Notes under the pieces: model-generated | What the model saw: only the letters and a program-made list of their open reading frames with translations | Told to the model about the DNA's origin: nothing | Databases searched by the model: none | Program-made: the position numbers and the translations under genes | Shown here: positions 39,877 through 60,876 of the stretch, piece by piece | Layout of the letters: the number at the start of each line of letters is the position of its first letter | Position numbering within the stretch: the stretch's first letter is position 1 | NCBI GenBank assembly: GCA_048939765.1 | Contig: JBHLPF010000003.1 | Location: forward strand, 1-64,000 | Source of the DNA: Promethearchaeota archaeon | Lineage (GTDB): Archaea; Asgardarchaeota; Thorarchaeia; Thorarchaeales; Thorarchaeaceae | Reading direction: 5' to 3' | DNA: 64,000 nucleotides

Positions 39877-41094
39877 CTATCGAAGGCCCATTAAATCCAC
39901 GAATAGATCCTCTATATTGAGGACCTTGATTTTCTTGTCCCGCTTCTTTATTGCATCCATGAAATTCAATTTGCAGAACACACAGGAAGATGCTAGAGTT
40001 GTCGCTCCTACTTCCAGCGCCGTGTCTATTCTTTCAGCGGCGACATTGATTGCATTTTCCCCAAATCCAGCCTTGAACCCTCCTCCTGCACCGCAGCATT
40101 TTGAGTTCTCACGATTGCGATCCATCTCCACCAATTCGAGACCAGGAATACTTGCCAATACCTCTCTTGGAGCATCAAAGATGCCAACATGTCGACCCAA
40201 GTGACACGGGTCGTGGTATGTGACCTTCTCGGGATAGCTCCCTTTCCATTTGAGCTCACCTTTCTTCACTTTCAGTGCGAGGAATTGTGTTAGGTGCTGT
40301 GTAGTAAATGGAAGAATACCCTGCTTCTCGCGATAGAATTTTGGCCAATCCAAAGTGACTGTGCGGAAACATCCTGAGCATGAGAAGATGAGGTGTTTGA
40401 CTCCTCTCTTCTTGAACTCCTCAATGTTATGCATGATGATGTCTTCCACATGAAGTCTTCCGACGTACTCCTTTGTACCATCTTCATGCTCATCATATAC
40501 GGGCTTATCGAGCTGGCCGGTTCTGATGAGGGGGCTGCAACAGCAGTATTCGTCAGGACCCAAGAGCTGCGGTTTGATGCCGAAGTAGTTGAGCATTCGA
40601 AGAGTGGAGTCTCCTATCTCCTGCCTCTTGAAAGATGCTGTACAACCCACAAAATAGCCCCACTCTGAATCATCAGATATCTCTGTATCATCTTGAATCC
40701 AGTCCGCTCTAGTAGCGTTGTCTGCTGCATACGGATTCTTCACTTTGTGTACAAAGTCTCCCATCAAATGAAGACGTCCATATGGTCCCTTGCCCATCTC
40801 AACAAGCTTCTTTCTGACATCTTCTATAATATCCACATAGGGTAACTTGATAGGACATCTCTCAACACATTGTTCACACGTGCTACAGGCGTAGACGGTT
40901 CTGACGAATTCATCATCAATTGGCAGGTTCTGTTCCACATAGGAACGCAGAAGCCTCAGCCGGCCTCCAGCAAACATGGCCTCAGTACGGAACTCCTCGT
41001 AACTAGTGCATGTCCACCGACAAGTGGAGCAGTTAGCGCATAGCACAATCTTGTCTGGATCGAAGTCTAGTTCTGGACCGAATAGTTTTGGCAT
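39877..41094 (-). CDS. HdrD/GlpC-type Fe-S oxidoreductase (2x[4Fe-4S] + 2 CCG domains), copy 1
   Basis: CANCSTCRWTC, CSTCEQCVERCP, GC...CCC...CSGC and HDPCHLGR...CCGAGGG...CVFC. Confidence 0.92.
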   Translation of the reverse strand: MPKLFGPELDFDPDKIVLCANCSTCRWTCTSYEEFRTEAMFAGGRLRLLRSYVEQNLPIDDEFVRTVYACSTCEQCVERCPIKLPYVDIIEDVRKKLVEMGKGPYGRLHLMGDFVHKVKNPYAADNATRADWIQDDTEISDDSEWGYFVGCTASFKRQEIGDSTLRMLNYFGIKPQLLGPDEYCCCSPLIRTGQLDKPVYDEHEDGTKEYVGRLHVEDIIMHNIEEFKKRGVKHLIFSCSGCFRTVTLDWPKFYREKQGILPFTTQHLTQFLALKVKKGELKWKGSYPEKVTYHDPCHLGRHVGIFDAPREVLASIPGLELVEMDRNRENSKCCGAGGGFKAGFGENAINVAAERIDTALEVGATTLASSCVFCKLNFMDAIKKRDKKIKVLNIEDLFVDLMGLR

Positions 41095-42570
41095 CTAGCG
41101 TACCTCCTCTTGTGGAATCTCTAGGATATTCTTGGCTCGTCTGAAAATACTCAGCACTCTTCTAAAGTTGCCATTCATGGTGAACATGAGATTCATTCTT
41201 CTATACGTCATGTTGGAGTGGGTCAGCTTGTCAGGATTCATAATCCCTTTTGGATCCCAGCGGTTTCGAATTTCTTGAAAGCGATTATAGTCATCAGGCT
41301 GGAACTTCTTGAGATAGACCGTGTTCTGGAGACCAAGAGTGTAGAGCTGCCCGTCATGTTTGTAACCAAGTTTCACTAATCGGTGGAGCATTGTCTTACC
41401 AGCCATGAAATGCATCCAGTGCCTGTGGTCCGACGGTGCGAATAGACAGAGTCTTGCCCTTTTATCGTCACCCAGGACCAGATAGAAGCAGGAGTTAATC
41501 CGATACTTCTTTGCTATATTGTACATTCTTTCTGTTATTGGTTTGATATTCTCCACGGGTATCCAAAGATTCTGCATTGAAAGGGTTGGTACTTCCAGCT
41601 TTAGCTTCATTTCTACAATGAACCTGTCCTCCCAGCTCCGAAGGAAGTACTCCTCTCCTAGGTCCATCGCACCAGCTGTTTTGAAGATGCCACGGGCAGC
41701 CTTGACAGAATCCTCGACATCCAAGGGCTTTCCATCATAGGCGACCAGAAGAAAGTACCTTCCCTCAATAAGAGCTGGCAGTCCTCCAGCTACGCGCCAC
41801 TCATACTCTCTGTCAGTCAGTCTTAGATAGACTGGCTTATGCTTCAGTTGGCAGATCCTCTTTATTGCTTCAATTGTCTTCTCCAGATCGGCAAATGTAA
41901 ACATGACCCCGTCAAATGCTTCTGGCACTCGACGAATTTTCAGCTTTAATGATATCACAACGCCAGCAATTCCTGATGTGCCATAGAATACTTTCATATC
42001 GTCGCCAGTGATCGTTTCTATATGGCCTTCAGGTCGCACTACAGTCATCTCGACTACATTGTCCAACATATTTCCGTGCTTTGGAGTGCCTATTCCTGCT
42101 TTTCCCCCAATTGCGAGCCAGCCCGCAATTACAGATGCCACAGCACTCTGCGGCGCCACTCTCAGGGTGAATCCTTGCTTGCGGAGCTGGTTGTCAAGGA
42201 CTTCCCAAACGGCTCCAGCTTGGACGTGTACCCACATTTCATTTTCATTTATTTCAAGAATCTTGTCGAGGAGTTTTACATCAACCATGATTCCTCCTCT
42301 GGTTGGGCTTGCCGATCCATAATAGCAGGTGCCTCCTCCCCTTGGAATGACTGGTATCTTCTTTTTATTCGCCAATTCGAAAACTTGAGCGACCTGTTCT
42401 GCGCTTGTAGGACGTGCAACGTAGTCAGCTAGCCACTTCTTCTTCCATCGATAATGGTAGTAAGGAATCCCGGTCGTGTCACCACTAGCTGATAGCCTGT
42501 CTACCATATTGCCAGTTATCCACTCTACATCTTCCACTTTCTTCAAATCAATTGATTCCGTTTCGGTCAT
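41095..42570 (-). CDS. FAD-linked oxidoreductase, GlcD/Dld fold, copy 1
   Basis: IPRGGGT, VQAG, GTSGIAGVV and DPKGIMNPDK. Likely start MTETES follows a GGAGG RBS. Confidence 0.9.
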   Translation of the reverse strand: MTETESIDLKKVEDVEWITGNMVDRLSASGDTTGIPYYHYRWKKKWLADYVARPTSAEQVAQVFELANKKKIPVIPRGGGTCYYGSASPTRGGIMVDVKLLDKILEINENEMWVHVQAGAVWEVLDNQLRKQGFTLRVAPQSAVASVIAGWLAIGGKAGIGTPKHGNMLDNVVEMTVVRPEGHIETITGDDMKVFYGTSGIAGVVISLKLKIRRVPEAFDGVMFTFADLEKTIEAIKRICQLKHKPVYLRLTDREYEWRVAGGLPALIEGRYFLLVAYDGKPLDVEDSVKAARGIFKTAGAMDLGEEYFLRSWEDRFIVEMKLKLEVPTLSMQNLWIPVENIKPITERMYNIAKKYRINSCFYLVLGDDKRARLCLFAPSDHRHWMHFMAGKTMLHRLVKLGYKHDGQLYTLGLQNTVYLKKFQPDDYNRFQEIRNRWDPKGIMNPDKLTHSNMTYRRMNLMFTMNGNFRRVLSIFRRAKNILEIPQEEVR

Positions 42571-42584: not shown

Positions 42585-42998
42585 CTACATTAAGAACTGG
42601 ATGTATCCCATCACAAAAACAATAGTCCAGCATGTCAGAGCAGTTAATCCTGGCCATTTCACTCTGATTCCACTTATTCCTGTTAGAAACGCGAGTACTC
42701 CAAACAAATAGCCCACCGTTCCCAGAAGAATATGGACAAAATGGAAGATGTCCAATGCTGGATTATTGAGCAGTAAGCCAATCCTCGCATCAGGTAGAAT
42801 CACAACGATGTTGATAGTAGTCAATACGAGCGATAGTCCAGCACAGACGCCGTGTGTGAATGTGTATTTCTCCTTTGAGATTTGATATAGAAGCGTACCA
42901 ATGCCCAGCAAGATAATTGCTGGTAGTCCCAATAAGATTGTCAAGTGAAAGCTTGTCCCAGCCTGTAGCGGCTCAAACCATATTTGTTGACCGACCAT
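42585..42998 (-). CDS. Four-TM membrane protein with conserved His (possible heme b anchor)
   Basis: FTHG and FHFVHILLG. Similar to the C-terminal domain of 54288-55484. Likely start is MVGQQ. Confidence 0.6.
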   Translation of the reverse strand: MVGQQIWFEPLQAGTSFHLTILLGLPAIILLGIGTLLYQISKEKYTFTHGVCAGLSLVLTTINIVVILPDARIGLLLNNPALDIFHFVHILLGTVGYLFGVLAFLTGISGIRVKWPGLTALTCWTIVFVMGYIQFLM

Positions 42999-43035: not shown

Positions 43036-44772
43036 CTAGTGCCAAATTCGTCTACCCAATCGTAGGAAAGGACCACCAATTGCCAGCATGAACGAGATAG
43101 GAATCATGTTAGCTACCTCGACCACAACTTCACCTATTACTAGTCCAAGTCCAAATGCGAGCAGCGCACTCGCCAAATCGGTCACTCCCAGCCACGGAAC
43201 GTAGGCATTCACGATATCAGGGACAATCCAGGTGACAAGCCATATGACGATGGGCACTGCCACAGCCACTGCCAGCATAATCAGAAGGTTGAATCGAAGT
43301 GATAGCTTCAGTGGACCGGAAAAGACCTTGTGAGGGTTCATGTACCCCTTTGGATCTGTCTGTTTCTTTATCTTCGCCATCTTCGCGTAGGTTTCCTTCC
43401 CGAAGTATGAACGAGAATGTGAGACATTCCACATGCCAATAGAATATGCCCTCCCATCATATTTGACACCAATGTCAATGACATCAAGAGAACGATACCA
43501 GCCCATCAGGAACGGTATTGTCCTGCGTTCATCATCCAAAAACCAAGTTAGAACCGCGACTTCTCCCCTATCGGACACTGCTCCTTCAGCTGCCCACTTC
43601 TCACGCTTAAAGTGGTCATCCATATGTGCCAAGAACTCATTCAATCGCTCAACAGGTACATAGACTTCGGAAGGTGCCAGACTTGGTCCCAATCGCTTTA
43701 TCCTCATTGGGTAGAATCGCTCATCCCACTCGTGATGCGCGATCTCTTCTGACTCCACTGTACCATTGTGACGTCTGACAACATGTTTGAGCTTCTCCAG
43801 TTCTCCAGCAATATCATCTTCAGTGCCTTCAAACGTGCAGAGAATTACCCATTCACCTGTTGTGTCGGGTGCTTGGCCAACTTCGACAAGCATACGGTGA
43901 AATGAGTCTGTGATGAAGTGCAAGTAGAACGGTCGTGTTGCCTTCAACAAGTCTGCCAAGGCTCCCTGCATCAAATTTCGGCTTCGGAAGGATGCGACAA
44001 CAGGGTGGATATTCCTTAGAGGAATTATCTTCAGAACGACCTTTGTGATAATGCCTAGAGCTCCATTACTGTCGATTAATAGCTCTTTCACATCATCATC
44101 TTGGGTTACATCGGCTTCTTGAGATCCCCAGACGTAACTATCATCACCTGGGAAATATTGGTAGGTCTTCCCTTTTGTTGTCACGATGTCATCTGGCGGG
44201 TCACTTGTTCTAAATATCCTGCCGTCTGGAAGAACAACTTCCATGTCAACAACCTGTTCTCTGATTCCTCCGTACTTGGTGCTGCCAATTCCAGAACCCC
44301 CGGCCGCAACCCAGCCTCCTACTGTGCTAGACGGTGCACTGGATGGATATGCCCCAACTGTAAGATCCTCGTCCTCCAGGATTTCAAGCAAGCGTCCCCA
44401 GATTATGCCTGAGCCAACTTCAACTGTCATGTTCTCGTGATTAATGTCGTGGACTTCGTTCATCCTAGTGGTTTCTATAACAAGTCCGCCTCTAGTTGGA
44501 AGAGCTCCCCCATATCCACTTGTTCCATGACCCCTGGGAACGACGGGTATCTTCTGTTCTATGCAATACTTCAGTAGATTTGATACGACTTTCGCGTTTA
44601 CCGGCTGAGCCACAGCTTCTGCTTCCGTGATGAGAATATCATTGACCAATCCAGGAAGCGCTGCAATATCATGAGAGTATAGTTTCCTCATGAATCCCTC
44701 AGCTGAGAAATAGTCTTCACCTGTGATGTCCGCAAGTTCCTGAACCTGTTTCGCTGTTAACACGCCTATCAC
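43036..44772 (-). CDS. FAD-linked oxidoreductase, GlcD/Dld fold with C-terminal two-TM anchor, copy 2
   Basis: PRGHGTSGYGG, YPSSAPSSTVGGW, GALGIITK and DPKGYMNPHK, then two hydrophobic helices. Confidence 0.9.
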   Translation of the reverse strand: MIGVLTAKQVQELADITGEDYFSAEGFMRKLYSHDIAALPGLVNDILITEAEAVAQPVNAKVVSNLLKYCIEQKIPVVPRGHGTSGYGGALPTRGGLVIETTRMNEVHDINHENMTVEVGSGIIWGRLLEILEDEDLTVGAYPSSAPSSTVGGWVAAGGSGIGSTKYGGIREQVVDMEVVLPDGRIFRTSDPPDDIVTTKGKTYQYFPGDDSYVWGSQEADVTQDDDVKELLIDSNGALGIITKVVLKIIPLRNIHPVVASFRSRNLMQGALADLLKATRPFYLHFITDSFHRMLVEVGQAPDTTGEWVILCTFEGTEDDIAGELEKLKHVVRRHNGTVESEEIAHHEWDERFYPMRIKRLGPSLAPSEVYVPVERLNEFLAHMDDHFKREKWAAEGAVSDRGEVAVLTWFLDDERRTIPFLMGWYRSLDVIDIGVKYDGRAYSIGMWNVSHSRSYFGKETYAKMAKIKKQTDPKGYMNPHKVFSGPLKLSLRFNLLIMLAVAVAVPIVIWLVTWIVPDIVNAYVPWLGVTDLASALLAFGLGLVIGEVVVEVANMIPISFMLAIGGPFLRLGRRIWH

Positions 44773-44774
44773 TC

Positions 44775-45962
44775 CTAAAGACCTAGTGCCTCCACCACAA
44801 TCTGGGATAAGTCCTTGAATTTGATCTCAGACTTCTTTTCCTCGATGCCATCTGTGAAAGACATTGTACAGGATGGACATTCACTTGCTAGAATCTCTGC
44901 TCCTGTCTTCTCAGCCTCTTCTATTCTACGCCCAGAGATTCGTACTGACATCATCGGATTGGTACCCTTTAGTAGACCTCCCCCTCCGCAACATCTAGCT
45001 TTGTTTCGGTTATGTTTCATCTCTCGAAGATCCAGCCCTGGTATCGCACTCAACACCTCACGAGCAGGATCATAGATCTCTTGATGTCGTCCAAGCTCAC
45101 AGGGGTCGTGCCAAGCGACAACATGATTGTAGGGCTTGGTGAACTTTATTCTGCCTTCATTCATCATCTTTTTTATAAACTGCGAAAACGACAGAAATTC
45201 CATGCCTTCTACAGATTCTTGCCCGAGAAGGTGCGGATACTCCTCAGAGAACGCGCGATGGCATCCAGGGCAGTTGAAGACTACTGTCTTGACACCCAAA
45301 TCCTTGAGCGTCGAAAGGTTATGTTTGGCTAGGCCCTTCGCCTTCTCAAACTCACCTGCAACAAAATAGGGATTTCCACAGCAAGTCTCCTCTTCTCCGA
45401 GAACTGTGAAATCGATTCCTAAATGATCGAAAACCTTGATAGTATTCTCTCCCATGAACGCTAGTGTTCCCTTGAATGAAATATTGCAGCCCGCAAAATA
45501 GGCGACCTCTGCATGCGCCATCTCTTTGTCTTCAACCAAGTCGTCGACCATGTCCGCCCAAAGCATTCTGTCGTATTGGTCCATCTCCATGATATTTTGG
45601 GTGTTCCTCAGAGACTCGTCAAGATATTTCACAATCTCTGGCCATTCTTCGAGATTCCCAACTTCGTTTCGAATCAACTGCCAGAAACGAAGCAGAGGTA
45701 TGTTTGTCTGGCAAATCTCCTGACAAGCGCCACACAGAGTACACTTGAATATCCTGTCAGCAAAGTCTGGAGGAATCTTCTGATTCTTTTTGACTAAATC
45801 CCTCAGTTGATACAGCTTTCCTCTTGGCGATTGTGAGTCCCACAGAGTATCTAGATAGGCAGGACATACAAACGTACAGAAACCGCACCTTGCACAGACT
45901 GTCGGTTCAATATCCAGGTTCTCTGCCTTAAGTTTTTCAAAGAGTTTGCTTCCCATCAACAT
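44775..45962 (-). CDS. HdrD/GlpC-type Fe-S oxidoreductase, copy 2
   Basis: CARCGFCTFVCP, CTLCGACQEIC, CCG...CPGC and HDPCELGR...CCGGGG...CPSC. Confidence 0.92.
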   Translation of the reverse strand: MLMGSKLFEKLKAENLDIEPTVCARCGFCTFVCPAYLDTLWDSQSPRGKLYQLRDLVKKNQKIPPDFADRIFKCTLCGACQEICQTNIPLLRFWQLIRNEVGNLEEWPEIVKYLDESLRNTQNIMEMDQYDRMLWADMVDDLVEDKEMAHAEVAYFAGCNISFKGTLAFMGENTIKVFDHLGIDFTVLGEEETCCGNPYFVAGEFEKAKGLAKHNLSTLKDLGVKTVVFNCPGCHRAFSEEYPHLLGQESVEGMEFLSFSQFIKKMMNEGRIKFTKPYNHVVAWHDPCELGRHQEIYDPAREVLSAIPGLDLREMKHNRNKARCCGGGGLLKGTNPMMSVRISGRRIEEAEKTGAEILASECPSCTMSFTDGIEEKKSEIKFKDLSQIVVEALGL

Positions 45963-45968: not shown

Positions 45969-46466
45969 TCAGGGCCAAGGCAATCCTATCCAATCAAGTA
46001 TTGGCTCCAGAATCGATTCGTGATAAACCGCGATCCCTCCCAATGCAGCGATTATGATTATCAATACTCCAGCAACAACTAAGCCTATCCCATAAGTGAG
46101 AAAACCTGAGGTCTTGTCCCACACTCTATCGCCAAGTCTGGTTCGAAGAATAACTAGGAAGATATAGATCTCTGTTGCCACAATTGACCAGAGAATCTTG
46201 AATCTCATATAGGGGTCAATTATCAGTGCAACCATTGGCCAATCCAAGAAGCCTGTCGCCATCCCTACGAAGAGGCCGATGAGTGTTATTATGCTTCCCC
46301 AATAGATGAAGACATCAAACTCATGAAAGATCCTTGCCATTCTTGTCCCGGGGGTTCTTATGCCATCTCGAAACACTAGCCTGAATACGATATTGAGCAA
46401 TGCAATAACCGCTACAGCTGCTCCTATGCCGGTATGAAAGTGTACAAAGACTGGATGTAGTGCCAT
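45969..46466 (-). CDS. DUF2231-like four-TM membrane protein (HPxxVHF)
   Basis: N-terminal LHPVFVHF motif, ATG in TM2 and C-terminal LGGIAVY. Confidence 0.65.
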   Translation of the reverse strand: MALHPVFVHFHTGIGAAVAVIALLNIVFRLVFRDGIRTPGTRMARIFHEFDVFIYWGSIITLIGLFVGMATGFLDWPMVALIIDPYMRFKILWSIVATEIYIFLVILRTRLGDRVWDKTSGFLTYGIGLVVAGVLIIIIAALGGIAVYHESILEPILDWIGLPWP

Positions 46467-46478
46467 GATAATCACCCT

Positions 46479-47120
46479 CTAGGTTCGGGCCCTCCTCAAA
46501 ACAAACAAGCCTAAGATGGCAAGCACCACTGCCGAAGCTGGAGTTATGGTGTACATCATCAGCTCCCATATGGCAATAAGCTCCTCCTGAGATGGTGTCG
46601 TTGGAGGGGGTGTTGTTGTAGTCGGCGGTGTGCTTGTTGGGGGACTTGTTGTGGCAGTGTTCTCTGCCACATCGACATTTATGTCAACACTCCGGCCTAC
46701 TCCTCCAGTTTCAGCAGACCAAATTCTGATTACGAAGGATCCTACCGTCCGAGGTGTAAATGTGATTGACGCTTGGATCTCTCCTACGTTTCCATTTGCA
46801 TCCTCAGCATCTCCATCCCAGACTACATCGTCAGAGATTGTGAACTCCCCATTGTCAGCAACTCCGTCTTTAATGCTGATTGCGATATGTTCTGTACTAT
46901 CGCTTGCGTCTATGATGAGCAGGAATGATACTCCCCTAGTTGCTTCAATCGTCCCAGTCGCATTCGTTGAAAGTGTAGTACCCACGGTTGTATGGCATCC
47001 CGCTTGTAGAGCGCAATTAGGATTGTAATCCGGTATAGCGAAAGAACTGCTCGCCAAGATAAACACTGAGATGACCAGGGTCGCTATAACCAAGGTCATT
47101 CTGCGATGCTGCTTCTTCAT
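46479..47120 (-). CDS. Surface protein with putative single c-heme motif (CX5CH), Ig-like domain, Thr/Pro stalk and TM anchor
   Basis: Signal peptide, CALQAGCH, beta-rich domain, TTSPPTSTPPTTTTPPP and TM-RRART. Likely start is MKKQH. Confidence 0.65.
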   Translation of the reverse strand: MKKQHRRMTLVIATLVISVFILASSSFAIPDYNPNCALQAGCHTTVGTTLSTNATGTIEATRGVSFLLIIDASDSTEHIAISIKDGVADNGEFTISDDVVWDGDAEDANGNVGEIQASITFTPRTVGSFVIRIWSAETGGVGRSVDINVDVAENTATTSPPTSTPPTTTTPPPTTPSQEELIAIWELMMYTITPASAVVLAILGLFVLRRART

Positions 47121-47343
47121 CTGGTTGTCTCCATTGGTTCTGAACAAGGCTCTATATCGAGTTCGTTCGTCGTTGGCCAAGGCCATGGTTTCAATCCGGA
47201 ACCACGCAACGCCATTTTAAGCATATCGGAAGCTTACATTGTAGGTTTCGAAAGCCGCCTGTTACGTCCTGAGACTTAACTCCTATCGAGAGGTACAATA
47301 CGTAAGTAATTCGAGTATCATCCACATTTTGGCTCTACAAGAG

Positions 47344-50249: not shown

Positions 50250-50351
50250 TCCAAAGGAATGTCCATTATCTCGCCTTAAGACTGTTAGGCTAGGTTCAAA
50301 AATGAAAGGACACCGGAGCACACATACAGGCACTCCGGATTGTCTATAAAA

Positions 50352-51690: not shown

Positions 51691-52815
51691 TCACTCCTCT
51701 ACAAGAGATGACTGTGCAAGATCCAAGATTAACTCGTCTAGCTGAATTACTTCCAAGTCTGTTTCACGTGCACAGTAGCTCAAGTTCTTATAACATGATA
51801 TGCATGTAGTAATCATTCCATCGACACCTAGCTCAACGGCTTCATTAACCCTTCTCTTCCCAACATCTTCAGACAATTGCGGGTCTAGGACCGTGAGGAA
51901 TCCGCCACAGCAATTTGCGTTCTCTTTATTATTAAGCAGCTCTACGAACTCTAGATTCGGAATTGCTCTGATGATCTCTCTTGGTTGCTCATATATGCCA
52001 AGTGCCCTTCCAAGATGACAGCTGTCATGAAATGTATAGCTTCCTTCTTTCCCCTTGAAAGTCAAGACACCATTTCGCACCATATTTGAAAGAACATCGA
52101 CAGTATGGTGTATCTGAACATCGAATTCCGGAATGACTTGCGCATAGTGTTCAGCTAGTGTTCCATAGCATCCTCCACAGCCTGTAACGATATGTTGGAT
52201 GCCTGCTTTCTTGAACATCTCATAGTTCTCGCGAGCTATTTTCTCAAAGCCAGCATCGTCACCAGCCCAGTATGACATGAGACCGCAGCAGACCTCACTG
52301 GGAACATACCCTGCGTCGACCTTCAGTTTCTGCAACATATCTACAACCATCTCAGGTTGATCTGGAAACCAGAAGCTACCCATACAACCACTGAAGATGG
52401 CTGTATTGGATTTCTCGGGCAATTCCAAGTCTTCAGCCCAGATGGTTCGGTCATCGGATTCGTATCCTATGAATGGCGTTCCTTCCTTGTCAAGCCAATC
52501 AATGACTTTCACGAGACTCTCTGACATTTCTCCTCCAGTCTTGAGGAGATTGGCCTTAGCTTCATGCCATATGTGAGTCACAGGCACTCCAGCTGGACAA
52601 ATAGCTTCGCACCTTCTGCAATCAGCGCAATATAGCCTCTGCAGCAATTCCTGAGGGGGATTTCTCATTTTTTCTCTATATGCCCTAAGTGCTCTGATCT
52701 TTCCTCCCGGACTGTCGAGTTCAGAGCCCAACTCAATATACATTGGGCATGTATCGCGACAATAGTTGCAGGACCCACAGTGGCGCATAGTTTCCTTGTC
52801 TATGTCAACTCTCAT
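51691..52815 (-). CDS. HdrD/GlpC-type Fe-S oxidoreductase, copy 4
   Basis: CGSCNYCRDTCP, CADCRRCEAICP, CCG...CGGC and HDSCHLGR...CCGG...CISC. Confidence 0.92.
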   Translation of the reverse strand: MRVDIDKETMRHCGSCNYCRDTCPMYIELGSELDSPGGKIRALRAYREKMRNPPQELLQRLYCADCRRCEAICPAGVPVTHIWHEAKANLLKTGGEMSESLVKVIDWLDKEGTPFIGYESDDRTIWAEDLELPEKSNTAIFSGCMGSFWFPDQPEMVVDMLQKLKVDAGYVPSEVCCGLMSYWAGDDAGFEKIARENYEMFKKAGIQHIVTGCGGCYGTLAEHYAQVIPEFDVQIHHTVDVLSNMVRNGVLTFKGKEGSYTFHDSCHLGRALGIYEQPREIIRAIPNLEFVELLNNKENANCCGGFLTVLDPQLSEDVGKRRVNEAVELGVDGMITTCISCYKNLSYCARETDLEVIQLDELILDLAQSSLVEE

Positions 52816-52827: not shown

Positions 52828-54288
52828 TCATCTCCCCACATATCTTGATAGGCGCCTTATTCCAGCGGCCATTAGGAACAACACATTCATCCTGAAGTAT
52901 GACGTCATGCATGAGGTCACACGGTCTGGATTCATTATATTGCTCCGATCCCACTTTTCTTTTGCTGCCTTCATTAATTCTAATCTCTCTGGATATGCAC
53001 GCTTCATATAGATTGAATTCTGAAGGCCAATCGTGTAAGGCCCACCGCCAAGCGAAATAGCCTTCTTCACCATTTTATGCAATATGCCTTTGCTGCTTAT
53101 GAACTTGAGATACTGGTCGGGATTCAGCATTGCCATCAATTCAGCTCTAACCTTTCCTTGACTTCCGAGCATTGCGAACCAGATTGCAGGCACCTTGTGT
53201 GATTTCTTGTAGGACTCATACCTGTTGAGTAGGTCATAGAGCTTGTCTACCTCAAGTGAAACCTCCTGAAACATCAAGGTGTCACAGTGCTCCTTGGGGT
53301 TGAACTCGCTGTCATAACGTAGACTCCAATCATGAGCTGCATATTCAACACCAAGTTCCATTCCTCCATTGTCTGCAATTGTCCTCTTGAGTTCATCTAT
53401 TGGGACACTTTCCGGCTGATTGGGATAGACCGCTGTCAGGACATAATTGCCCTTCTCTAGTGGATTGCTGTAGCTCTGGAAGTCCTTGTCTGCAATCTTG
53501 AGATGGATCGGTTTCTGATCAATAGCAGCAATTTGCCGCATTGCATTGCACACATGCTCCAGGTGGTCAAATCCGTAGCTGAACGGAATGAAATCATCGG
53601 GCTTATCATGGATTCTCATTTTCACCTCTGTGATGACTCCAAGTATGCCATAAGACCCAAAGAATAGTCCTATCTCATCGCCACTGATTGTGACCAATTC
53701 GCCATCAGCATTCACGACCGTCAATTCAAGGATATTCTCGATCAGAGCTCCGTAGTAGGGAGTGCCAATGCCTGCTGTACCCCCGCATCCGATCCATCCA
53801 GCGATTACAGCTGATTTAGCGCTAGTTGGATAAATGCCAATGGTCTTCCCTTGTTTTGCGAGCTCAACATCGAGTCTGTCGAAGGGAACCCCTGGTTCAA
53901 GTCTGACATAGCCTTCATCTGTATTGATTTCAAGGATGGCATCCATCCGCTTGATGTCAAGAGATATCCCGCCGCGTGTTGGGCTCGATGACCCCAGGCA
54001 ACTTGATGCACCGCCTCTTGGGATGACGGGAATACCGTGAGCAGCCGCAGTTGTAACAACTTCCCTCACCTCATCCACATTCTCGACTCGTACAACATAG
54101 TCGACCAGATACTTCCCTTTCCAGCGGTAGTGGAATTGTGGGAGGGCTGCAGGATCGCCGCTATACACTATCCTCTCCAACAGCATGTTCGAAACTCGAT
54201 CCGGACTTACGGCTGCTGCAAGGTCTCGCATGACTTGGTCATCATATTTTGGAGTCTGGGTTTCCACTTGTTCTTCAGTCATAATCAT
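52828..54288 (-). CDS. FAD-linked oxidoreductase, GlcD/Dld fold, copy 4
   Basis: IPRGGAS, YPTSAKSAVIAGW, GSYGILGVIT and IMNPDR. Likely start MIMTEEQ overlaps the upstream stop. Confidence 0.9.
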   Translation of the reverse strand: MIMTEEQVETQTPKYDDQVMRDLAAAVSPDRVSNMLLERIVYSGDPAALPQFHYRWKGKYLVDYVVRVENVDEVREVVTTAAAHGIPVIPRGGASSCLGSSSPTRGGISLDIKRMDAILEINTDEGYVRLEPGVPFDRLDVELAKQGKTIGIYPTSAKSAVIAGWIGCGGTAGIGTPYYGALIENILELTVVNADGELVTISGDEIGLFFGSYGILGVITEVKMRIHDKPDDFIPFSYGFDHLEHVCNAMRQIAAIDQKPIHLKIADKDFQSYSNPLEKGNYVLTAVYPNQPESVPIDELKRTIADNGGMELGVEYAAHDWSLRYDSEFNPKEHCDTLMFQEVSLEVDKLYDLLNRYESYKKSHKVPAIWFAMLGSQGKVRAELMAMLNPDQYLKFISSKGILHKMVKKAISLGGGPYTIGLQNSIYMKRAYPERLELMKAAKEKWDRSNIMNPDRVTSCMTSYFRMNVLFLMAAGIRRLSRYVGR

Positions 54289-55484
54289 CACATCAAGAAT
54301 CCAACCGCATTGAGATAGAATCCTGTCAGCCCGAGTACTGTCCACATCAATACTGTAGGTAGGCCGAGATTGCATGTTTTCCACCCAGCGATATGGGTGA
54401 TGAGCGCTAGTGTTCCGAGTATCATGCTTAGTATTCCAACCCAGATATGCCAAGAGTGAATGAATAGCATCAGCTCAGCTGGGTTGATAAGATAGGATGG
54501 GTTCAAAGCAGTCCAAGCTCCAGGGTCTTCCTGAAATAGCCAAAGCACGTTGATTAATGTGAGGAAGTAGGCTATTGTTAGCATATACCCGTGAAATCTG
54601 GTGAATCTCTCTTCATCATAGTATTCGAGTGCTGTGCCAAGATACGCTAGTATCAATGCTGGAGCACCCAAATAGAACCCATAGTGCAACTTCGGTAGCG
54701 GAATGGCCTGCACTGTGTATTGTAAGGGCGGATCAGTGAATACTTCTATTCCACCTACATCCCTCGCGACTATCCGAAACTCTACTGTAGTGCCAGCCGG
54801 ATATCTTGGAATAGTTGCCTGATAGTATCCACCAACTTGTGTCATTGTAATGTTGGTCCACTCAGTAGTTGTGTTTGCCCTATGTTGTAGCACTGCTGAA
54901 ACAATACCTGCTTCCGAGCTTACATTCGCCGACACAAGTACACTCTCATTATCGAACGGAGACGTTGGCTCAATAGTGAAGTCTGCTATCGATGGTCCTT
55001 CTCCCACATGAATCACATTCACAATGATTGTAGTTCCTACCGCATAGCCACCGTTACCTGCAGCCCATATCTCAAGGGTATATGAGCCCGCTATCGCAGG
55101 CGCAGTCAATGTATAGTTGACTTCCATCTCCAGAGGGTCTGAATCAAGGTCACCTGCTAAGTTATCACGAACCAATCCATCACTGGGAATATTGAAGAGG
55201 GCATTGCTCTCCAAATTCAAGGGGAACTTGATGACTAGCGTAGTTGGCCCTGATGTTGCTGAAGCAGTGACAATAAACGAGAATTCCGCTCCTTCTTCAA
55301 CATCTACCGAAGTGTCCGTGCTTACTGTCATTCCAGTCGCAGTAGTATGACATCCCGTATTATCGCAGGCTCCCTGTTGAGTCACATAGGCAACAGTAGC
55401 TTGAGACGCTATGACGAGGGCTATGGCAGCAGCTAACACAACAATAATGGCATATCTTGATTTCCGCTTCACATCTGTCACCAT
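54288..55484 (-). CDS. Putative monoheme (CX4CH) surface domain + Ig-like domains fused to a His-bearing four-TM domain
   Basis: Signal/TM, CDNTGCH, two beta-rich domains, then TMs with RFHG and HSWHIW. Confidence 0.65.
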   Translation of the reverse strand: MVTDVKRKSRYAIIVVLAAAIALVIASQATVAYVTQQGACDNTGCHTTATGMTVSTDTSVDVEEGAEFSFIVTASATSGPTTLVIKFPLNLESNALFNIPSDGLVRDNLAGDLDSDPLEMEVNYTLTAPAIAGSYTLEIWAAGNGGYAVGTTIIVNVIHVGEGPSIADFTIEPTSPFDNESVLVSANVSSEAGIVSAVLQHRANTTTEWTNITMTQVGGYYQATIPRYPAGTTVEFRIVARDVGGIEVFTDPPLQYTVQAIPLPKLHYGFYLGAPALILAYLGTALEYYDEERFTRFHGYMLTIAYFLTLINVLWLFQEDPGAWTALNPSYLINPAELMLFIHSWHIWVGILSMILGTLALITHIAGWKTCNLGLPTVLMWTVLGLTGFYLNAVGFLM

Positions 55485-55628: not shown

Positions 55629-56117
55629 TCAATAATCGTGGTTCTTCCATCTGTAGAAGTCTGTACCTCTCCAATAGGACAATATCCTTGGAGTAATCCG
55701 AATTGCAATTCTGTTTCCCAAGGGATATCCGGCGCCGAGGAAATCTAGATACTTGGAGAGGAAGTTGATCGTAATCTCTTCATCAACAAGCTCCATCTCC
55801 ACCATCATGGCGCGACCCTTAATCATGACTCCGCGATTGGCTGCAGGTAGTACTGCGTTTCGCTCATCCACGGTTACACACACTTTTGTGTTCTTTCTGA
55901 TGTTTGCAATCTTGTGGCTACCTCTTGTGGTAATCATATAGATCTGCTTTGTAGGATCATGCCAGATATAGAACATCGCAGTTAGGTGCGGCAAGCATCC
56001 TGCTTCTGATGTTCCAAGGTATGAGAAAAAGCCTGACTTGAGGATACGCAAAGCTTCCTCTGGAATCTCCTTCGCGATTCTTATTGGAGCACCATGTGTC
56101 TTGGCTAGGAACATCAT
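55629..56117 (-). CDS. Pyridoxamine 5'-phosphate oxidase-like split beta-barrel flavin/F420-binding protein
   Basis: LGT...PHL, SHKIANIRKNTKVCVTVD, GVMIKGRA and IRITP...W. Confidence 0.8.
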   Translation of the reverse strand: MMFLAKTHGAPIRIAKEIPEEALRILKSGFFSYLGTSEAGCLPHLTAMFYIWHDPTKQIYMITTRGSHKIANIRKNTKVCVTVDERNAVLPAANRGVMIKGRAMMVEMELVDEEITINFLSKYLDFLGAGYPLGNRIAIRITPRILSYWRGTDFYRWKNHDY

Positions 56118-57371
56118 TCACACCCTCAGTATCTGCGGCTTAGCCTCTCTCCAGTATGTTATCTTCTCAGGCTCGACCCTCACCATGACTCTGGATACGA
56201 ATGGTTTGTTTTGCCATGCAAGGGGGAGGTCCTTTTCTTGTGTGTCATAGTACTTCATGTATCGTGGATATTTCCTACCAAAGAGAGACCGTACTCTGAG
56301 CATCCATAGTCCATAAAGATACAGTCTGAATAGTCCTAGTGGAGTTACCTCCCCAAGAATCATCGCCTTTCCGCGAAGCATAACAGCTCGATTTTTCATT
56401 ACATTCTTACTGTCTCTCAGATCTACAAGGATAGCGATGTTGGGGTTCTTCTTGATCTTCCGATATTTCGCAGAGGCGAGCGATATTCCGAAATACAAGT
56501 ACTTTCCATCATAGACAAAGATCACTGGAGTCACATGACTCTGGTTCTTTTCACAAAGAGCAACATATGCAAATCGTTCATTGTAGAGGATGCTCTCCAC
56601 ATCGGGCGGGAACCATGGAACTCGTTCCATAGCCAACAGACTTGCTCCCGATAGTGACAGGACAGCGGCGAAGAAGGCACCCAGTCCATACAGCAGCATT
56701 GGTTCAATGCTTGCCAGAGGCAGCAACAGGACGGCTGATGCAGCCCAATACAGATTGACTGAGTCCAAATACTTTAGGGTCCGAACTTCCGAATATGCAG
56801 TGTATTCAAGTCCCCTTCTCCGTCTTGCGGCGCGGCTGAGTGATATAGACCTCCTAGCCGCAAAGAGTGTGGTAATCAACGATAATCCAATTCGATAGGA
56901 AACGTCCCAAATAAGAACTGCAACTAGTGCCATTAGTATTGGGTTGCCAAATCCTGTTCCTAGGTTCTCAGCAAGAAGTGTCGGATTCAGGAGGATGAAT
57001 CCCCAAACACCAGCGAAAAGCGTGATTCCCATTGCAAGCTCGTACCGCCTATCCAGAAGAAGTCGGTTTTTGTATGACTCAAGAACTCTTCTTTCCTCAT
57101 CGTTAGTTGGATTTCTTAAGCGTCTCAGCCACGGGATGACATAAAGACATCCAGCGGACCATACAACAGTATATAGAATTGCCAATGTACCGTAGATGGC
57201 TGAGGTCAAAGGCATTTCGAAATACAGGAATCCAGCAATCCCTATCGCTTCGACCAATAGCAATTGGGCCAAAACGTCGTAAACTGGCGGGAGCCAGCTA
57301 AATGGAGGAACTCTGTCAACTATCTCCTCATAAATCCATTTTCTCTCGGCATGCTGGCTCGTCCCTTGCAT
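56118..57371 (-). CDS. Membrane protein (about six TMs) fused to a PNPOx-like domain
   Basis: Hydrophobic N-terminal half. C-terminal HVTPVIF, SAKYRKIKKNPNIAILVD, AVMLRGKA and VRVEPEKITYW. Confidence 0.75.
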   Translation of the reverse strand: MQGTSQHAERKWIYEEIVDRVPPFSWLPPVYDVLAQLLLVEAIGIAGFLYFEMPLTSAIYGTLAILYTVVWSAGCLYVIPWLRRLRNPTNDEERRVLESYKNRLLLDRRYELAMGITLFAGVWGFILLNPTLLAENLGTGFGNPILMALVAVLIWDVSYRIGLSLITTLFAARRSISLSRAARRRRGLEYTAYSEVRTLKYLDSVNLYWAASAVLLLPLASIEPMLLYGLGAFFAAVLSLSGASLLAMERVPWFPPDVESILYNERFAYVALCEKNQSHVTPVIFVYDGKYLYFGISLASAKYRKIKKNPNIAILVDLRDSKNVMKNRAVMLRGKAMILGEVTPLGLFRLYLYGLWMLRVRSLFGRKYPRYMKYYDTQEKDLPLAWQNKPFVSRVMVRVEPEKITYWREAKPQILRV

Positions 57372-57474: not shown

Positions 57475-58716
57475 CTACTCATAGATCTCCTCTAACCCAT
57501 CCCACTCCAAGCCTAATGCCTCAGCCATTAGAACTGCAAGGTCCTTAACTACCTTACTCGATCCTGCTTGAGGCAGTTGATCATGCATGAAGTCAACACA
57601 TGAAGGGCAAGATGCAGCAACTACTGAAGCACTTGTCTGTTCAATATCGTCCACTTTCAACTTGCTGATCCGGTTGGCAAACTCGGCGTCAATAGCTCGT
57701 AGCACACCGCCCGACCCGCAGCAGAAACAGTTGCTCTTGTTATGCGGCAGCTCCTCGAAAGTCACCCCAGGCAGGTACTCCAAGACCTTTCTAGGCTGTT
57801 CATAGAAACCTGAGTTCCTTCCCGCGTCGCAGCCGTCATGAAATGTCACAGTAATGTCTAGAGGATTGGTGAATTCCAACTTGTTGGCATCAATAAGCTC
57901 CTCAAAATACTCCGGTCCGTAGATGATTTCGAATGGCGGGTCAATGCCAAGGAACTCGTGATATTCATGGGCCCACATCTTATAGCAGCCCGGGCAATTT
58001 GTCATAACTCGTTCCACCCCGAGTTCCTTGTATTTCTCAATATTATGCTCAGCAAATTGACGAGCGGTCTCGAAGTCGCCTGTCATGATCATAGGCGCTC
58101 CACAACAGACTTCATCTTCACCAAGAAATGTGTACGACTCGCCAGCTTTGTCCATGATCAGAGTGGTGGCAATTGTTGCCTGAATGGAGACTCCACGGAA
58201 TGAGGAGGCACACCCGAAGAAGAATGCAGTCTTTGCCTCTTGGCCCATTGTATCTAAAAGGGCGTCTTCATCTGGATGCCAATACGACCATCCCTCGACT
58301 CTATCCATCTGTGACTGTCCCTGAATGTTCTGGCTGTCAAGTAGGGTCTTCTTTGCCATCTCAAGTTGCTCAGGCCAGAGACCCATCTTCTGGAAGTCTG
58401 ACCTCATCAGTTGGTAAATCTGAACAAAAGGAATGTCCACCTGGCAAATCTCTTCGCATCCTCCACAGAGAGTACATCCGAAAACCGCGTCGCGAAGACC
58501 CTCTAGACCTTCCGACGCCTTCAGGCTTCCCTGGGCCAATGAACGGGCAATGATCATCTTCCCTTTTCCTGAGTAGCTATCTCGGCGCTTCACCTTGTAG
58601 GTCGGACAGGCGCCATGGCCAACTTGGCAGAAGCTACATTGCGCACAAGTATATGGCATATCTTGAAGGTTATGCTTCTTCAGTGATGGGAATTCCATGA
58701 TGTCATTCACAACCAT
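57475..58716 (-). CDS. HdrD/GlpC-type Fe-S oxidoreductase, copy 5
   Basis: CAQCSFCQVGHGACP, CTLCGGCEEIC, CCG...CPGC and HDGC..GR...CCGSGG...CPSC. Start uncertain (58698-58764). Confidence 0.92.
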   Translation of the reverse strand: MVVNDIMEFPSLKKHNLQDMPYTCAQCSFCQVGHGACPTYKVKRRDSYSGKGKMIIARSLAQGSLKASEGLEGLRDAVFGCTLCGGCEEICQVDIPFVQIYQLMRSDFQKMGLWPEQLEMAKKTLLDSQNIQGQSQMDRVEGWSYWHPDEDALLDTMGQEAKTAFFFGCASSFRGVSIQATIATTLIMDKAGESYTFLGEDEVCCGAPMIMTGDFETARQFAEHNIEKYKELGVERVMTNCPGCYKMWAHEYHEFLGIDPPFEIIYGPEYFEELIDANKLEFTNPLDITVTFHDGCDAGRNSGFYEQPRKVLEYLPGVTFEELPHNKSNCFCCGSGGVLRAIDAEFANRISKLKVDDIEQTSASVVAASCPSCVDFMHDQLPQAGSSKVVKDLAVLMAEALGLEWDGLEEIYE

Positions 58717-58920
58717 CGGGACACGTGGCTCGACATGTTTTGCCGAACGAGTTATGCCCTGCAACAGCCCTTAATATCTGTGCTCGTTGCACAATGGCAT
58801 AGCTTTCGTCACACTTTAAAACTTGTTAGGTAAGTTGTGTCAAACGCCATTCCCTCCCTCTCTCGCTAGGTTTTTATGGAGCATGATTCCACGACCGTGA
58901 CCTGAGAGCAGCTTCATCTC

Positions 58921-60876
58921 TTGGAGAGAGTCCACATGACACTGAAGCCAAAGCTAGTGACGGAACTCGCTGAGGTCTATGAAGACCGAGTGATCACAGA
59001 GAAGCATGAGCTCGTCATCCATGGCATGGATGTTGGTTCTTTGCCCAAACAAGTGGGCTGGTTAATGAACGTCAAGCCTGATGCGATTGTGCAGCCTCAA
59101 ACCCCTGAAGAGATCAGGTTCCTGTACGAGTTTGCAAACAAGTACAAGGTTCCTCTAATACCAAGGGGGGCAGGCACTTCGGGCTATGGTGGTGCAATTC
59201 CTCGAAAGGGAGGCATCATTGTTGACATGCGTGTTATGGACAAGATCGTTGACATCGATGAAGAGAATCTGACTGTCACTGTTGAGCCCGGACTCTCATG
59301 GGCGAATCTGCAATTTGAGCTGAACCGAAAGAACCTAGACCTCCGTTGTTATCCCTCTTCTGGACTCTCTGCAACAATCGGGGGCTGGGTGGCCCAGGGC
59401 GGCGATGGAATTGGGTCTCTCAAGTATGGGAACATCAACAAGAACGTGGTTGCTTTCGAGGTGGTCTTGCCAACTGGAAAGATGATCAAGAGCAAGGACT
59501 GTGACCTGTTCTGTGACACAGAGGGCATTCTTGGAATCATCACTAAGGTGACTCTGAAGATAAAGCCCTTCACTCCTATCAAGGTCATTGTTTCGAGCTT
59601 CCCTGAGAATTATCTGATGGTTCATGCTATAGAGAAGATACTCGAAGATGGTCCTCTTCCATTCACGATAAAGTTCGAAGAAGCAAAGTACACAGACCTG
59701 AAGAAGAAGATCTGGGACAGTGAGGAGAAGTTCCCATTCCCGGTTCATCACTGCACGATTATGGTTGCATATGACGGAGATGAGGAGGAGATTGCAGAGG
59801 GCTTCAGAGTTGTAGAAGAAGTCACAAAGATGTACAAGGGAACTGTTTATGATGAGCATGTGTCTACCCACGAATGGAGTGACCGCTTCTACCCAATGAG
59901 AGTCAAGAAAGCTGGTCCTACCCTCGTTGTTGGCCAAGCATTTGCACCGCTTGAGAACCTAACCGCAATACTTGATGACTGGCAATTTGAACAGGGATCC
60001 GCTAAAGCTGGTATTGATGGCTACGTAAACTCTTTGAATGCTGTCACCATGATGGGCTATTTCCTCGAAGATGAACGGCGCAGATTCTTCATGTTATCCT
60101 GGGCTCAGAGCTTTGTTGTGTTCAAGATTGCACAGCGGCATGGCGGTCATGCTCACTCGACAGGAATCTGGTTCGCCAACCTGGCCGGTCAATACTTTGG
60201 TGCACAGCGACTGGCAAAGATACGTGCAGCCAAGCTTAAGTACGACAAGAAGGAGATATCAAATCCTGGGAAGGTGTTCGCCTATTGGCTACCACTTATT
60301 CTCAAGTTTGGTAAGTATTTCCTCTGGATATTCTATGACCTATTCAGGAATGGGTTTGGCAGGATTGCTCCAATACTTCTGAAGTGGCTCCAGAACCTGC
60401 CGCCACTCAAGTGGGTGCTGCGATGGGGCCGAGCACATAGTCCATGGCCAGTGCAATACGGATTAGGATGTTGCATGGTCGATGGTGCCGCTGGAATCGC
60501 GTCGAGGTGGGACTTTGAACGATTCGGGATGCTCCCCCTCTTTGGCCCGCGGCAGTGTGATGTGCTATGGATATCTGGGTCTCTTACCAAGAAGATGGCT
60601 CCGCGACTGCGAAGAGTCTACGAGATGATGCCAGATCCCAAGTTCGTTATCGCCTTCGGACAGTGCGCGGCCAGTGGCGGCGTCTTTTGGGACGGATACT
60701 CGCTACAGGTTCCGCCTGAGTCTGTAGTACCTGTCGACGTCTATTTGCCCGGGTGTCCTCCGAAGCCTTCAGACTTCGTCAGGGCTCATCTGATACTCCA
60801 GAACAAGATTCGTGCAGGCACGACACACTGGCAAATGAAGTATGAAAACCAGGACGCAATGGGGATGATCCAATGA
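58921..60876 (+). CDS. Fusion protein: GlcD/Dld-fold FAD oxidoreductase (copy 5) + NuoB/FpoB-like [4Fe-4S] complex I subunit
   Basis: N-terminal part has PRGAGTSGYGG, YPSSGLSATIGGW, EGILGIITK and NPGK. C-terminal part has WGRAHSPWP..GLGCC, DFERFG, PRQCD, KMAPRLRRVYEMMPDPKFVIAFGQCAASGG and VPVDVYLPGCPP. Likely ATG start at 58936. Confidence 0.92.
   Translation: MERVHMTLKPKLVTELAEVYEDRVITEKHELVIHGMDVGSLPKQVGWLMNVKPDAIVQPQTPEEIRFLYEFANKYKVPLIPRGAGTSGYGGAIPRKGGIIVDMRVMDKIVDIDEENLTVTVEPGLSWANLQFELNRKNLDLRCYPSSGLSATIGGWVAQGGDGIGSLKYGNINKNVVAFEVVLPTGKMIKSKDCDLFCDTEGILGIITKVTLKIKPFTPIKVIVSSFPENYLMVHAIEKILEDGPLPFTIKFEEAKYTDLKKKIWDSEEKFPFPVHHCTIMVAYDGDEEEIAEGFRVVEEVTKMYKGTVYDEHVSTHEWSDRFYPMRVKKAGPTLVVGQAFAPLENLTAILDDWQFEQGSAKAGIDGYVNSLNAVTMMGYFLEDERRRFFMLSWAQSFVVFKIAQRHGGHAHSTGIWFANLAGQYFGAQRLAKIRAAKLKYDKKEISNPGKVFAYWLPLILKFGKYFLWIFYDLFRNGFGRIAPILLKWLQNLPPLKWVLRWGRAHSPWPVQYGLGCCMVDGAAGIASRWDFERFGMLPLFGPRQCDVLWISGSLTKKMAPRLRRVYEMMPDPKFVIAFGQCAASGGVFWDGYSLQVPPESVVPVDVYLPGCPPKPSDFVRAHLILQNKIRAGTTHWQMKYENQDAMGMIQ

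Follow-up and report, generated by a model that had tools for sequence, protein, structure and literature searches.

The array of paired flavoprotein and iron-sulfur protein genes described here lies in a 64,000-nucleotide stretch of DNA from a Promethearchaeota archaeon of the order Thorarchaeales (the window, which is the first 64 kb of the 110-kb contig JBHLPF010000003.1, assembly GCA_048939765.1). The five flavoprotein genes are called F1 to F5 and the five iron-sulfur genes H1 to H5, following the array numbering. We give an even chance to the reading that this 21-kb array is the core of a conserved membrane electron-transport island of approximately 47 kb, which is carried by a subset of the Thorarchaeota. 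The island joins the Ccm genes for heme-c assembly, a putative surface cytochrome, new membrane proteins, a quinone prenyltransferase, the five modules and a pump, i.e. testable parts for respiration or electron exchange, and suggests a membrane electron-transport chain that has not been described previously.

No relatives of the eukaryotic host lineage closer than the Asgard archaea are known, and models of eukaryogenesis hinge on electron transfer from such cells to partners. Thorarchaeota are usually viewed as fermenters or acetogens. If the more tentative reading of the island as a complete electron-transfer chain (see below) is true, these Asgard archaea would respire or exchange electrons directly with partners, and would not live by fermentation only.

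Flavoprotein and iron-sulfur gene pairs

Pfam searches detected FAD_binding_4 and FAD-oxidase_C domains in the open reading frames (ORFs) at 41095, 43036, 47344, 52828 and 58921. Five further ORFs (39877, 44775, 49053, 51691 and 57475) have Fer4_8 together with a pair of CCG stretches. Each F gene adjoins an H gene, in agreement with the original prediction of five pairs of FAD-oxidoreductase and CCG Fe-S proteins. Pairwise identity among the five copies was 23–38% for the F proteins and 22–36% for the H proteins, so that a duplication in the assembly is excluded, as had also been predicted. In the whole genome, an H gene adjoins 13 of 13 complete F genes (chance approximately 1e-22), and HdrD-like genes total 14; pairing is thus a rule of the entire genome. 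The clustering of five of the 13 loci inside 21 kb has a p value of approximately 1e-5. The other eight F genes adjoin H genes on contigs C2, C16, C55, C57, C69, C91 and C97; among these loci are two trios, H-F-H on C16 and F-H-F on C69. Across all 41 sampled Thorarchaeia genomes the number of F genes ranged from 2 to 15 per genome.

From H5 through H1 all genes lie on the minus strand, and within two blocks the intergenic gaps are 0–18 nt. The first block, operon A, has the order X235 (46479..47186), X168 (45969..46475), H2 (44775..45962), F2 (43036..44772), X164 (42585..42998), F1 (41095..42570) and H1 (39877..41094). The second, operon B, has the order X407 (54288..55481), F4 (52828..54288), H4 (51691..52815), AO443 (50352..51683), H3 (49053..50333) and F3 (47344..49050). 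H5 (57475..58764, minus strand) is divergent from F5-NuoB (58936..60876, plus strand), which is the first gene of a complex-I-like operon. Gene packing, paralogy and conserved order therefore replace the five separate units that had been proposed by two sister operons plus the head of a pump.

In a maximum-likelihood tree of the F proteins, {F1,F4} had a support of 100/100 and {F2,F3,F5} of 97/90. In the corresponding H tree, {H2,H3} had a support of 93/92, and {H5,H2,H3} was weakly supported in the best tree. A Mantel test of F against H distances was not significant for 12 genome-wide pairs (r = 0.04, p = 0.40), while inside the window, with five pairs only, it gave r = 0.88 and p = 0.016. 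The maximum-likelihood trees were preferred over the Mantel tests, since raw distances are saturated at 20–25% identity. Paralogous relations between the operons connect F1 with F4, F2 with F3, H2 with H3, X235 with the N-terminus of X407, and X164 with the C-terminus of X407. These relations indicate that the array expanded via duplication of multi-gene units. X164-F1-H1 may have arisen later, by copying of the C-terminal part of X407 together with F4 and H4, and the absence of these three genes from one related island (G035, see below) is compatible with such an origin.

The flavin adenine dinucleotide (FAD) fold of the F proteins can be regarded as safe on sequence grounds, while the assignment of a substrate cannot. 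FAD_binding_4 (PF01565) matched all five with E-values of 1e-33 to 3e-38, and a pyrophosphate loop of the PRGxGT type was visible in the alignment. The matches to FAD-oxidase_C (PF02913) were weak in all five (7e-7 to 2e-11), still over the gathering score. By Pfam, hydropathy and tree position, F2 and F3 belong to the F2/F3/F5 subtype and carry C-terminal transmembrane helices (two to three in F2); F1 and F4 (486 aa) form the other subtype, and both have amphipathic C-terminal tails. F4 orthologs form at least 120 clusters, nearly all with a Thorarchaeota label, in which HYRWK, PRGGxSSC and PYxIGLxN are invariant. The F4 start at 54288 is supported by 100% ortholog coverage, and its ATG shares one base with the stop codon of X407. 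The long ORF of F1 reaches 42657; a start near 42570 is most likely, given where X164 lies and that an ATG is in frame there. The varied membrane attachment that had been predicted for the modules was thus upheld (C-terminal helices of F2 and F3, separate His-rich proteins, F5-NuoB); menaquinone is probably not the only electron sink.

The H proteins are HdrD-like CCG proteins (Pfam), and no transmembrane helix was detected in H1–H5 by hydropathy. H1, the last gene product of operon A, is HdrD/GlcF-like (CCG 2.8e-26, Fer4_8) and is 76% identical to its ortholog in the genome G001; H2 (CCG 6e-37) is the sister of H3. The true start of H3 may be internal, and that of H5 is probably internal to the ORF because the orthologs have 407–412 aa. 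Two motifs of the CX2CX2CX3C type are found in each of H1–H4, and the first motif of H5 is CX2CX2CX6C. Every named equivalog cut-off searched for the H proteins (GlcF, GlpC, TfrB, LdhH, TmcB, HmcF, DsrK) was missed, e.g. TfrB with 148–192 bits versus 385.

The closest solved relative of H2 in the PDB search was EtfD (9ojn_A, 5e-35). In EtfD, a member of the mycobacterial Rv0338c family (9OJN), the CCG-domain clusters, two cubane clusters and heme b wire a flavoprotein to menaquinone (PMC13083937). A fused FAD, Fe-S and CCG protein (P0109) matches F5 and, with its residues 501–858, also H4. Because fused proteins such as P0109 match both partners, each F-H pair plausibly acts as one enzyme.

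Membrane partners, heme-c genes and conservation of the island

Operon B begins with X407 (minus strand), which has a signal anchor, a CX4CH motif, two beta-sandwich domains and four transmembrane helices. The family comprises 128 clusters, mostly Thorarchaeota-labelled, every one of which is annotated as hypothetical. In an alignment of 24 members, Cys-X(2–4)-Cys-His was invariant immediately after the signal anchor, with a canonical CXXCH in most, and five His residues were invariant in the four C-terminal helices, as were the loops YYDEE(R/K)FT and GWKTCNLGLP. In X407 the invariant residues are C39, C44 and H45, and H266, H297, H342, H345 and H363. The structure model (pLDDT 79) shows an N-terminal helix, two beta-sandwich domains forming an Ig/FN3-like ectodomain, and the four transmembrane helices.

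Operon A begins with X235 (minus strand), which has a signal anchor, CX5CH, a Thr/Pro linker and a C-terminal transmembrane anchor, and which is 33% identical to the N-terminal ectodomain of X407 (BLASTP, 3e-12). Its orthologs at the equivalent position have CGNCH, CGGCH, CNACH or CGxSGCH. With this motif behind a signal anchor and with Ccm in the genome, X407 and X235 are candidate heme-c carriers. A 1,481-aa protein encoded between H5 and F5-NuoB in the genome G026 has an X235-like N-terminus, with a signal anchor followed by CNACH.

X164 (137 aa, minus strand, between F2 and F1) is a four-helix membrane protein that was missed in the first reading and was found by BLAST of X407 against the ORFs of the genome. 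It matches residues 274–407 of X407 (BLASTP, 32%, 1e-7), and in the alignment it shares four of the five invariant His residues (H18, H49, H86, H89). Its orthologs are 62–66% identical in three other genomes, and its model has a pLDDT of 83. The remaining membrane protein, X168 (minus strand), begins with HPVFVHFH and has four to five helices by hydropathy; its orthologs are 60–68% identical and lie in every case between X235 and H2. The ESM Atlas neighbours of X168 include DUF2231 clusters at 0.87 and 0.85, a sub-threshold lead only.

A heme-c block (26727..36553) lies upstream of the array, with the order multiheme cytochrome c, X726, CcmF, FMN reductase, CcmE, X131, CcmC, CcmB and CcmA (Pfam). 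The PF01578 matches of the entire genome are confined to this Ccm block. The multiheme cytochrome c (26727-28196, plus strand, 489 aa) has a signal anchor, a Thr-rich linker and a C-terminal transmembrane anchor; six CXXCH motifs and one CGGPAPCH predict six to seven hemes. It is weakly NrfA-like (2j7a, 2.9e-7, residues 275–419), and the island might use it as terminal reductase or as an outlet for electrons at the cell surface.

This block is separated from the array by genes for a protein of the geranylgeranyl-reductase (GGR) family, a polyprenyl diphosphate synthase (PPS) and a MenA-like prenyltransferase (36419..39866; Pfam, GG-red-SF over cut-off). The MenA-like enzyme (38802-39866, plus strand) scored 108.4 bits with TIGR00751 menA versus a cut-off of 102.15. 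A function of this UbiA-type gene as the digeranylgeranylglyceryl phosphate synthase of archaeal lipids was rejected, because the MenA cut-off is passed and the best matches are all 1,4-dihydroxy-2-naphthoate prenyltransferases. A MenG/UbiE methyltransferase over cut-off is encoded on contig C22 (C22:9913-10590).

On the other side of the array, F5-NuoB consists of a flavoprotein of the F2/F3/F5 subtype, a hydrophobic linker and a NuoB domain (Pfam Oxidored_q6, 6e-24). Its start is probably at 58936, judged from the 646-aa orthologs, and proteins of approximately 646 aa form at least 45 clusters, nearly all Thorarchaeota-labelled. The NuoB part scored 168.6 bits with NF005012 versus a cut-off of 116, and the cluster ligands (CC...C...CP) are intact. 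Two further PF01058 matches in the genome are on other contigs. The complex-I-like operon continues in the window (60873..64000, plus strand) with X181 (a membrane protein), NuoA, NuoJ, NuoK and NuoC, and past the window with NuoD, NuoH, NuoI and four antiporter-like subunits (Pfam); it contains no separate nuoB and no NuoEFG.

Ccm was present in 16 of the 41 sampled Thorarchaeia genomes, and the F1/F4 type (presence threshold E≤1e-100) was found in exactly those 16. Full-length X407 was present in 13 of the 16 and in none of the 25 others, always directly upstream of F4. In total the island was present in 5 of 17 sampled genera.

The original prediction had pointed to synteny in related genomes as a check. 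G001 (closed genome CP070761) has the identical set of five F genes in identical gene order, and G026 and G035 have the whole set in two further arrangements. The Ccm/multiheme cytochrome block is co-located with the modules in these three genomes. In G035 (contig C8, 36000-70000), which belongs to another genus, a cytochrome/Ccm/flavoprotein island of approximately 21 kb, from which X164-F1-H1 is absent, lies between F5-NuoB and X181-NuoA, inside the nuo operon. G002 (GCA_008080745) has the order MutS-GGR-PPS-MenA-H5|F5-NuoB, without the Ccm block and without modules 1–4. H5 adjoins F5 in G001, G002 and G035, and in G026 the 1,481-aa gene intervenes. GGR, polyprenyl synthase and MenA-like genes are linked to H5/F5 in G002, G026 and G035, and the linkage of the island genes to MenA, H5 and F5-NuoB/Nuo survives three different rearrangements.

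Proposed electron path and rival explanations

In the proposed mechanism, an F protein with the VAO/PCMH fold would exchange electrons with an organic substrate at FAD. The H protein would relay the electrons through two CCG-domain clusters and two cubane clusters, in an EtfD-like manner. They would then reach a His-rich membrane protein with four helices, namely X164, X168 or the X407 C-terminal part, where heme b is probably bound. Two exits are envisaged from there. One is a prenylated quinone, in whose synthesis the neighbouring MenA-like enzyme would take part; the other is an outward heme-c domain (on X235, or at the X407 N-terminus), from which electrons would continue to the membrane-anchored multiheme cytochrome c. 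H5 and F5 would form an equivalent module, covalently tied to the NuoB of a pump without an NADH module. The EtfD wire and the fused protein P0109 are the basis for reading F and H as one enzyme leading to the membrane. The sink probably extends beyond menaquinone alone, since the conserved island also includes outward-facing CX2-5CH proteins, Ccm and the multiheme cytochrome. That the chain is complete, crosses the membrane and perhaps reaches outside the cell, from the HdrD-type modules through the previously unclassified heme-c/heme-b X proteins to the surface cytochrome, and is also tied to the pump via FAD-NuoB, is a more tentative proposal, which we place somewhat below an even chance.

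Several observations weigh against this mechanism. The heme, FAD and clusters of the island proteins are predictions only. X164, X168, X235 and X407 had no Pfam match even at E≤10; accordingly no NarI/HdrE-family match was found in Pfam for X164, X168 or the X407 C-terminus, while four to five invariant transmembrane His residues are present in X164 and X407. A Foldseek search with the X164 model gave nothing at E≤0.001, and the VIA-align matches of X164 were to generic helical bundles (the C-terminal part of cytochrome oxidase subunit III, designed bundles, Dcytb) at Z≤12.5, which is in the range of noise. With only generic four-helix bundles among the matches, X164 could not be placed in a heme-b family. 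For X407, the fold-search list was filled by its two beta-sandwich domains, and the ESM Atlas gave no usable match for the membrane part. A second heme in X164 is doubtful, because in our reading of the topology only H49 of the four shared His residues would be near the cytoplasmic face.

The extracytoplasmic motifs of X407 and X235 in the window are, as far as the sequences go, CX4CH and CX5CH, and not CXXCH. The co-occurrence with Ccm may reflect one or two evolutionary events in related organisms, since the Ccm-bearing genomes belong to five genera and few independent events are expected. Co-divergence of the pairs, which had been suggested as a test, was only partial: the F tree has {F2,F3,F5} and the H tree {H2,H3}; {H1,H4}, the counterpart of {F1,F4}, was absent from the best H tree, yet it was not rejected (AU p = 0.32).

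The menaquinone pool that had been predicted as the sink is not established by the gene content, because MqnA/D, MqnC and MenB were not found in the genome (88.5% complete), although the scores of the MenA-like protein and of MenG/UbiE are over the cut-offs. The F sequences also lack the D-2-hydroxyacid metal site, so that they have no assigned substrate. The motifs HxxDGNxH and GEHG, which contain the His/His/Glu metal site, were found in none of the 13 paralogs of the genome. Compared with mouse LDHD (8jdb), F5 has GYVNSLN for GHVGDGN and HAHSTG for GEHGIG, and F1–F4 have x-Y-[ST] at the second motif position. One paralog on contig C16 (C16a) has HQHGVG at that position. The labels 'D-lactate dehydrogenase' and 'glycolate oxidase' on such Asgard genes are therefore unsafe, and the original claim that these pairs oxidise small organic acids must be regarded as unproven, given that the GlcD-type metal motifs are gone from all five and that no equivalog cut-off was reached.

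The same evidence bears on the view that the array encodes five independent, substrate-specific D-2-hydroxyacid dehydrogenases (lactate, glycolate or 2-hydroxyglutarate type), acting as GlcD/GlcF-like heterodimers that feed menaquinone. We consider this view unlikely. It has the best named matches on its side, i.e. GlcD, LctD and mitochondrial D-lactate dehydrogenase (D-LDH) for F, and GlcF, GlpC, TfrB and LdhH for H; the best PDB matches were LctD for F2 (1e-30), and LctD and the D-LDH type for F5. A MenA-like gene adjoins the array, EtfD demonstrates that an HdrD-like module can reduce menaquinone, and other Asgard Dld-HdrD pairs have been read in this way, with a heterodisulfide as acceptor though (PMC9723677). 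On the other hand, both metal-ligand motifs are missing in all five F proteins, and scores are far under the NCBIfam equivalog cut-offs, none of which was reached by any F or H protein (TIGR00387 glcD, 123–152 bits versus 567.9). Independent enzymes are also at odds with two polycistronic sister operons that have common membrane and heme-c-like partners, and a menaquinone acceptor with the failure to find the head-group pathway.

The cysteine ligands of the H proteins raise the question of whether the CCG clusters are catalytic. Both CCG domains (PF02754) are complete in all five (C...CC...CX2C), with full HdrB-type five-Cys sets, the TmcB, HmcF and DsrK models match H (under cut-off), and several HdrB-like genes are found elsewhere in the genome. 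These findings would suit a system in which F supplies the electrons for reducing a heterodisulfide or the disulfide of a DsrC-like protein, and in which the membrane proteins either anchor the enzyme or connect it with the outside in the style of Tmc, Hmc or DsrMK. We know of no CoM, CoB or DsrC cosubstrate pathway in Thorarchaeota. The CCG clusters serve as a wire in EtfD, the closest solved relative, and fused FAD, Fe-S and CCG enzymes of the YdiJ type are named dehydrogenases in NCBIfam. Thiol/disulfide chemistry has been published as the reading for the Sifarchaeia and Jordarchaeia (PMC9723677), and for the present array we consider it improbable.

AO443 (50352..51683, minus strand) introduces a third explanation. 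This amine-oxidase-fold flavoprotein (Pfam Amino_oxidase, 1e-34) is phytoene desaturase/HpnE-like (HpnE 4.7e-35, under cut-off; PDB phytoene desaturase 5mog, 3e-18). Of all island proteins it is conserved best, with 81–83% identity across genera versus 44–66% for F1–F4 and X407; its conservation hints at a central role. Together with AO443, the F proteins might act on prenyl chains, ether-lipid precursors or quinone, with H and the cytochromes disposing of the electrons. The transmembrane helices of F2 and F3, the amphipathic tails of F1 and F4, and the lasting linkage of the GGR, polyprenyl synthase and MenA-like genes to the island are in line with such a role. The best PDB match of F1 is alkyl-dihydroxyacetone phosphate synthase (2e-23), but this match is statistically level with that to D-LDH (5e-22) and covers the FAD-binding half only. 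F2, F3 and F5 are nearest to LctD and D-LDH, no lipid-specific motif was identified in the F proteins, and the perfect co-occurrence with Ccm points to respiration. We consider a function in lipid or isoprenoid metabolism very unlikely.

Reverse flow, in which electrons from outside (a partner cell, mineral or shuttle) via heme-c, or from the pump, would reduce an organic acceptor at FAD, is likewise given very little probability. In its favour, the sequences fix no direction, the NuoB to which F5 is fused stands where the cluster chain of the pump ends, and in sulfate reducers electrons move inward through the Tmc, Hmc and DsrMK complexes. The evidence favours neither direction, and this reading differs from the proposed mechanism in the sign of the flow only.

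Relation to known systems and further features of the island

Many Dld-HdrD pairs per genome have been published, and the bare observation of multiple pairs is therefore already known. Multi-copy pairs of Dld (GlcD-like) and HdrD were described in Sifarchaeia and Jordarchaeia by Sun et al. 2021 (PMC9723677), who took them to oxidise D-lactate and to reduce a heterodisulfide with the electrons; co-location of HdrD and GlcD is noted for Methanomethyliales, Bathyarchaeota and Archaeoglobus in PMC6421429. As in those pairs, a FAD_binding_4/FAD-oxidase_C gene lies by a Fer4 and 2xCCG gene, and the two papers report up to 9 and 13 copies, compared with 13 here. Unlike them, the F proteins of the present study do not have the D-2-hydroxyacid metal site, and the genes share their operons and surroundings with membrane proteins of the heme-c-like and His-rich kinds, with Ccm and with a complex-I-like pump, which the available parts of PMC9723677 and PMC6421429 do not mention. 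New in this study are the sister operons, the loss of the metal site, the X407, X235, X164 and X168 proteins and the strict association with Ccm. A literature search of incomplete coverage found no papers on these subjects, and nothing relevant on c-type cytochromes in Thorarchaeota.

EtfD shares with the H proteins two cubane and two CCG-domain clusters, and its soluble region is homologous to H. EtfD, however, is a single chain with five transmembrane helices of its own and receives electrons from the electron-transfer flavoprotein ETF, whereas H is soluble and would receive them from a flavoprotein of the VAO fold, and the putative heme-b part is encoded separately, as a four-helix protein that looks unrelated. 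TmcABCD, HmcABCDEF, DsrMKJOP and HdrDE of Methanosarcina also combine an HdrD-like CCG protein with a membrane heme-b protein and, except for HdrDE, with an outward c-type cytochrome. In contrast to these complexes, the membrane and heme-c parts of the island match no NarI/HdrE or cytochrome c3 family of Pfam, the heme-c motif is on a beta-sandwich ectodomain, and a flavoprotein belongs to the system as an integral part.

Fused FAD, Fe-S and CCG dehydrogenases (the D-2-hydroxyglutarate dehydrogenase of the YdiJ type, and proteins of Thermincola, Chloroflexota and Methanoperedens named 'FAD-binding and (Fe-S)-binding domain-containing protein') are the nearest relatives of F2, F3 and F5 outside the Thorarchaeota (33–40% identity), and are also relatives of H4. 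They differ from the present proteins, which are split, anchored by transmembrane helices or fused to NuoB, and have cytochrome-like partners; the YdiJ score was far under the cut-off. Eleven-subunit complex-I-like enzymes without NuoEFG, such as the Fpo-like enzyme with HdrD that has been proposed in Methanomassiliicoccales and the cyanobacterial NDH-1, resemble the operon described here in having NuoA, C, D, H, I, J and K with antiporter-like subunits, and in the HdrD-like gene alongside. Unlike in those enzymes, NuoB is here fused to a flavoprotein; no papers describing such a fusion were found in a literature search of limited coverage.

Three other genes lie in the heme-c block. X726 (28374-30554, plus strand, 726 aa) is exported and C-terminally anchored, has faint GH88/epimerase-like matches, and is kept between the multiheme cytochrome and CcmF in G026 and G035 (46–49% identity). 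In each of the three genera examined, the genes for CcmF and CcmE flank one for an NADPH-dependent FMN reductase (32784-33416, plus strand). X131 (33809-34204, minus strand) is an unclassified membrane protein of 131 aa between CcmE and CcmC, and its position may be CcmD-like.

NuoD, located just past the window (contig positions 64170-65306), contains GPQHVSAHG and ends with DPYPGWWDR. A NuoD of the [NiFe]-hydrogenase type was rejected, since Cys pairs were present at neither end.

The interval from X407 to H5 holds two genes for proteins with the PNPOx fold (split barrel of the FMN/F420 type; 55629..57371, minus strand). In the second, this fold is joined to a DUF7530 membrane domain (Pfam), and the NCBIfam match to the PPOX class was under cut-off. 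Both are kept by H5 in G001 and G026 and are not there in G002 and G035.

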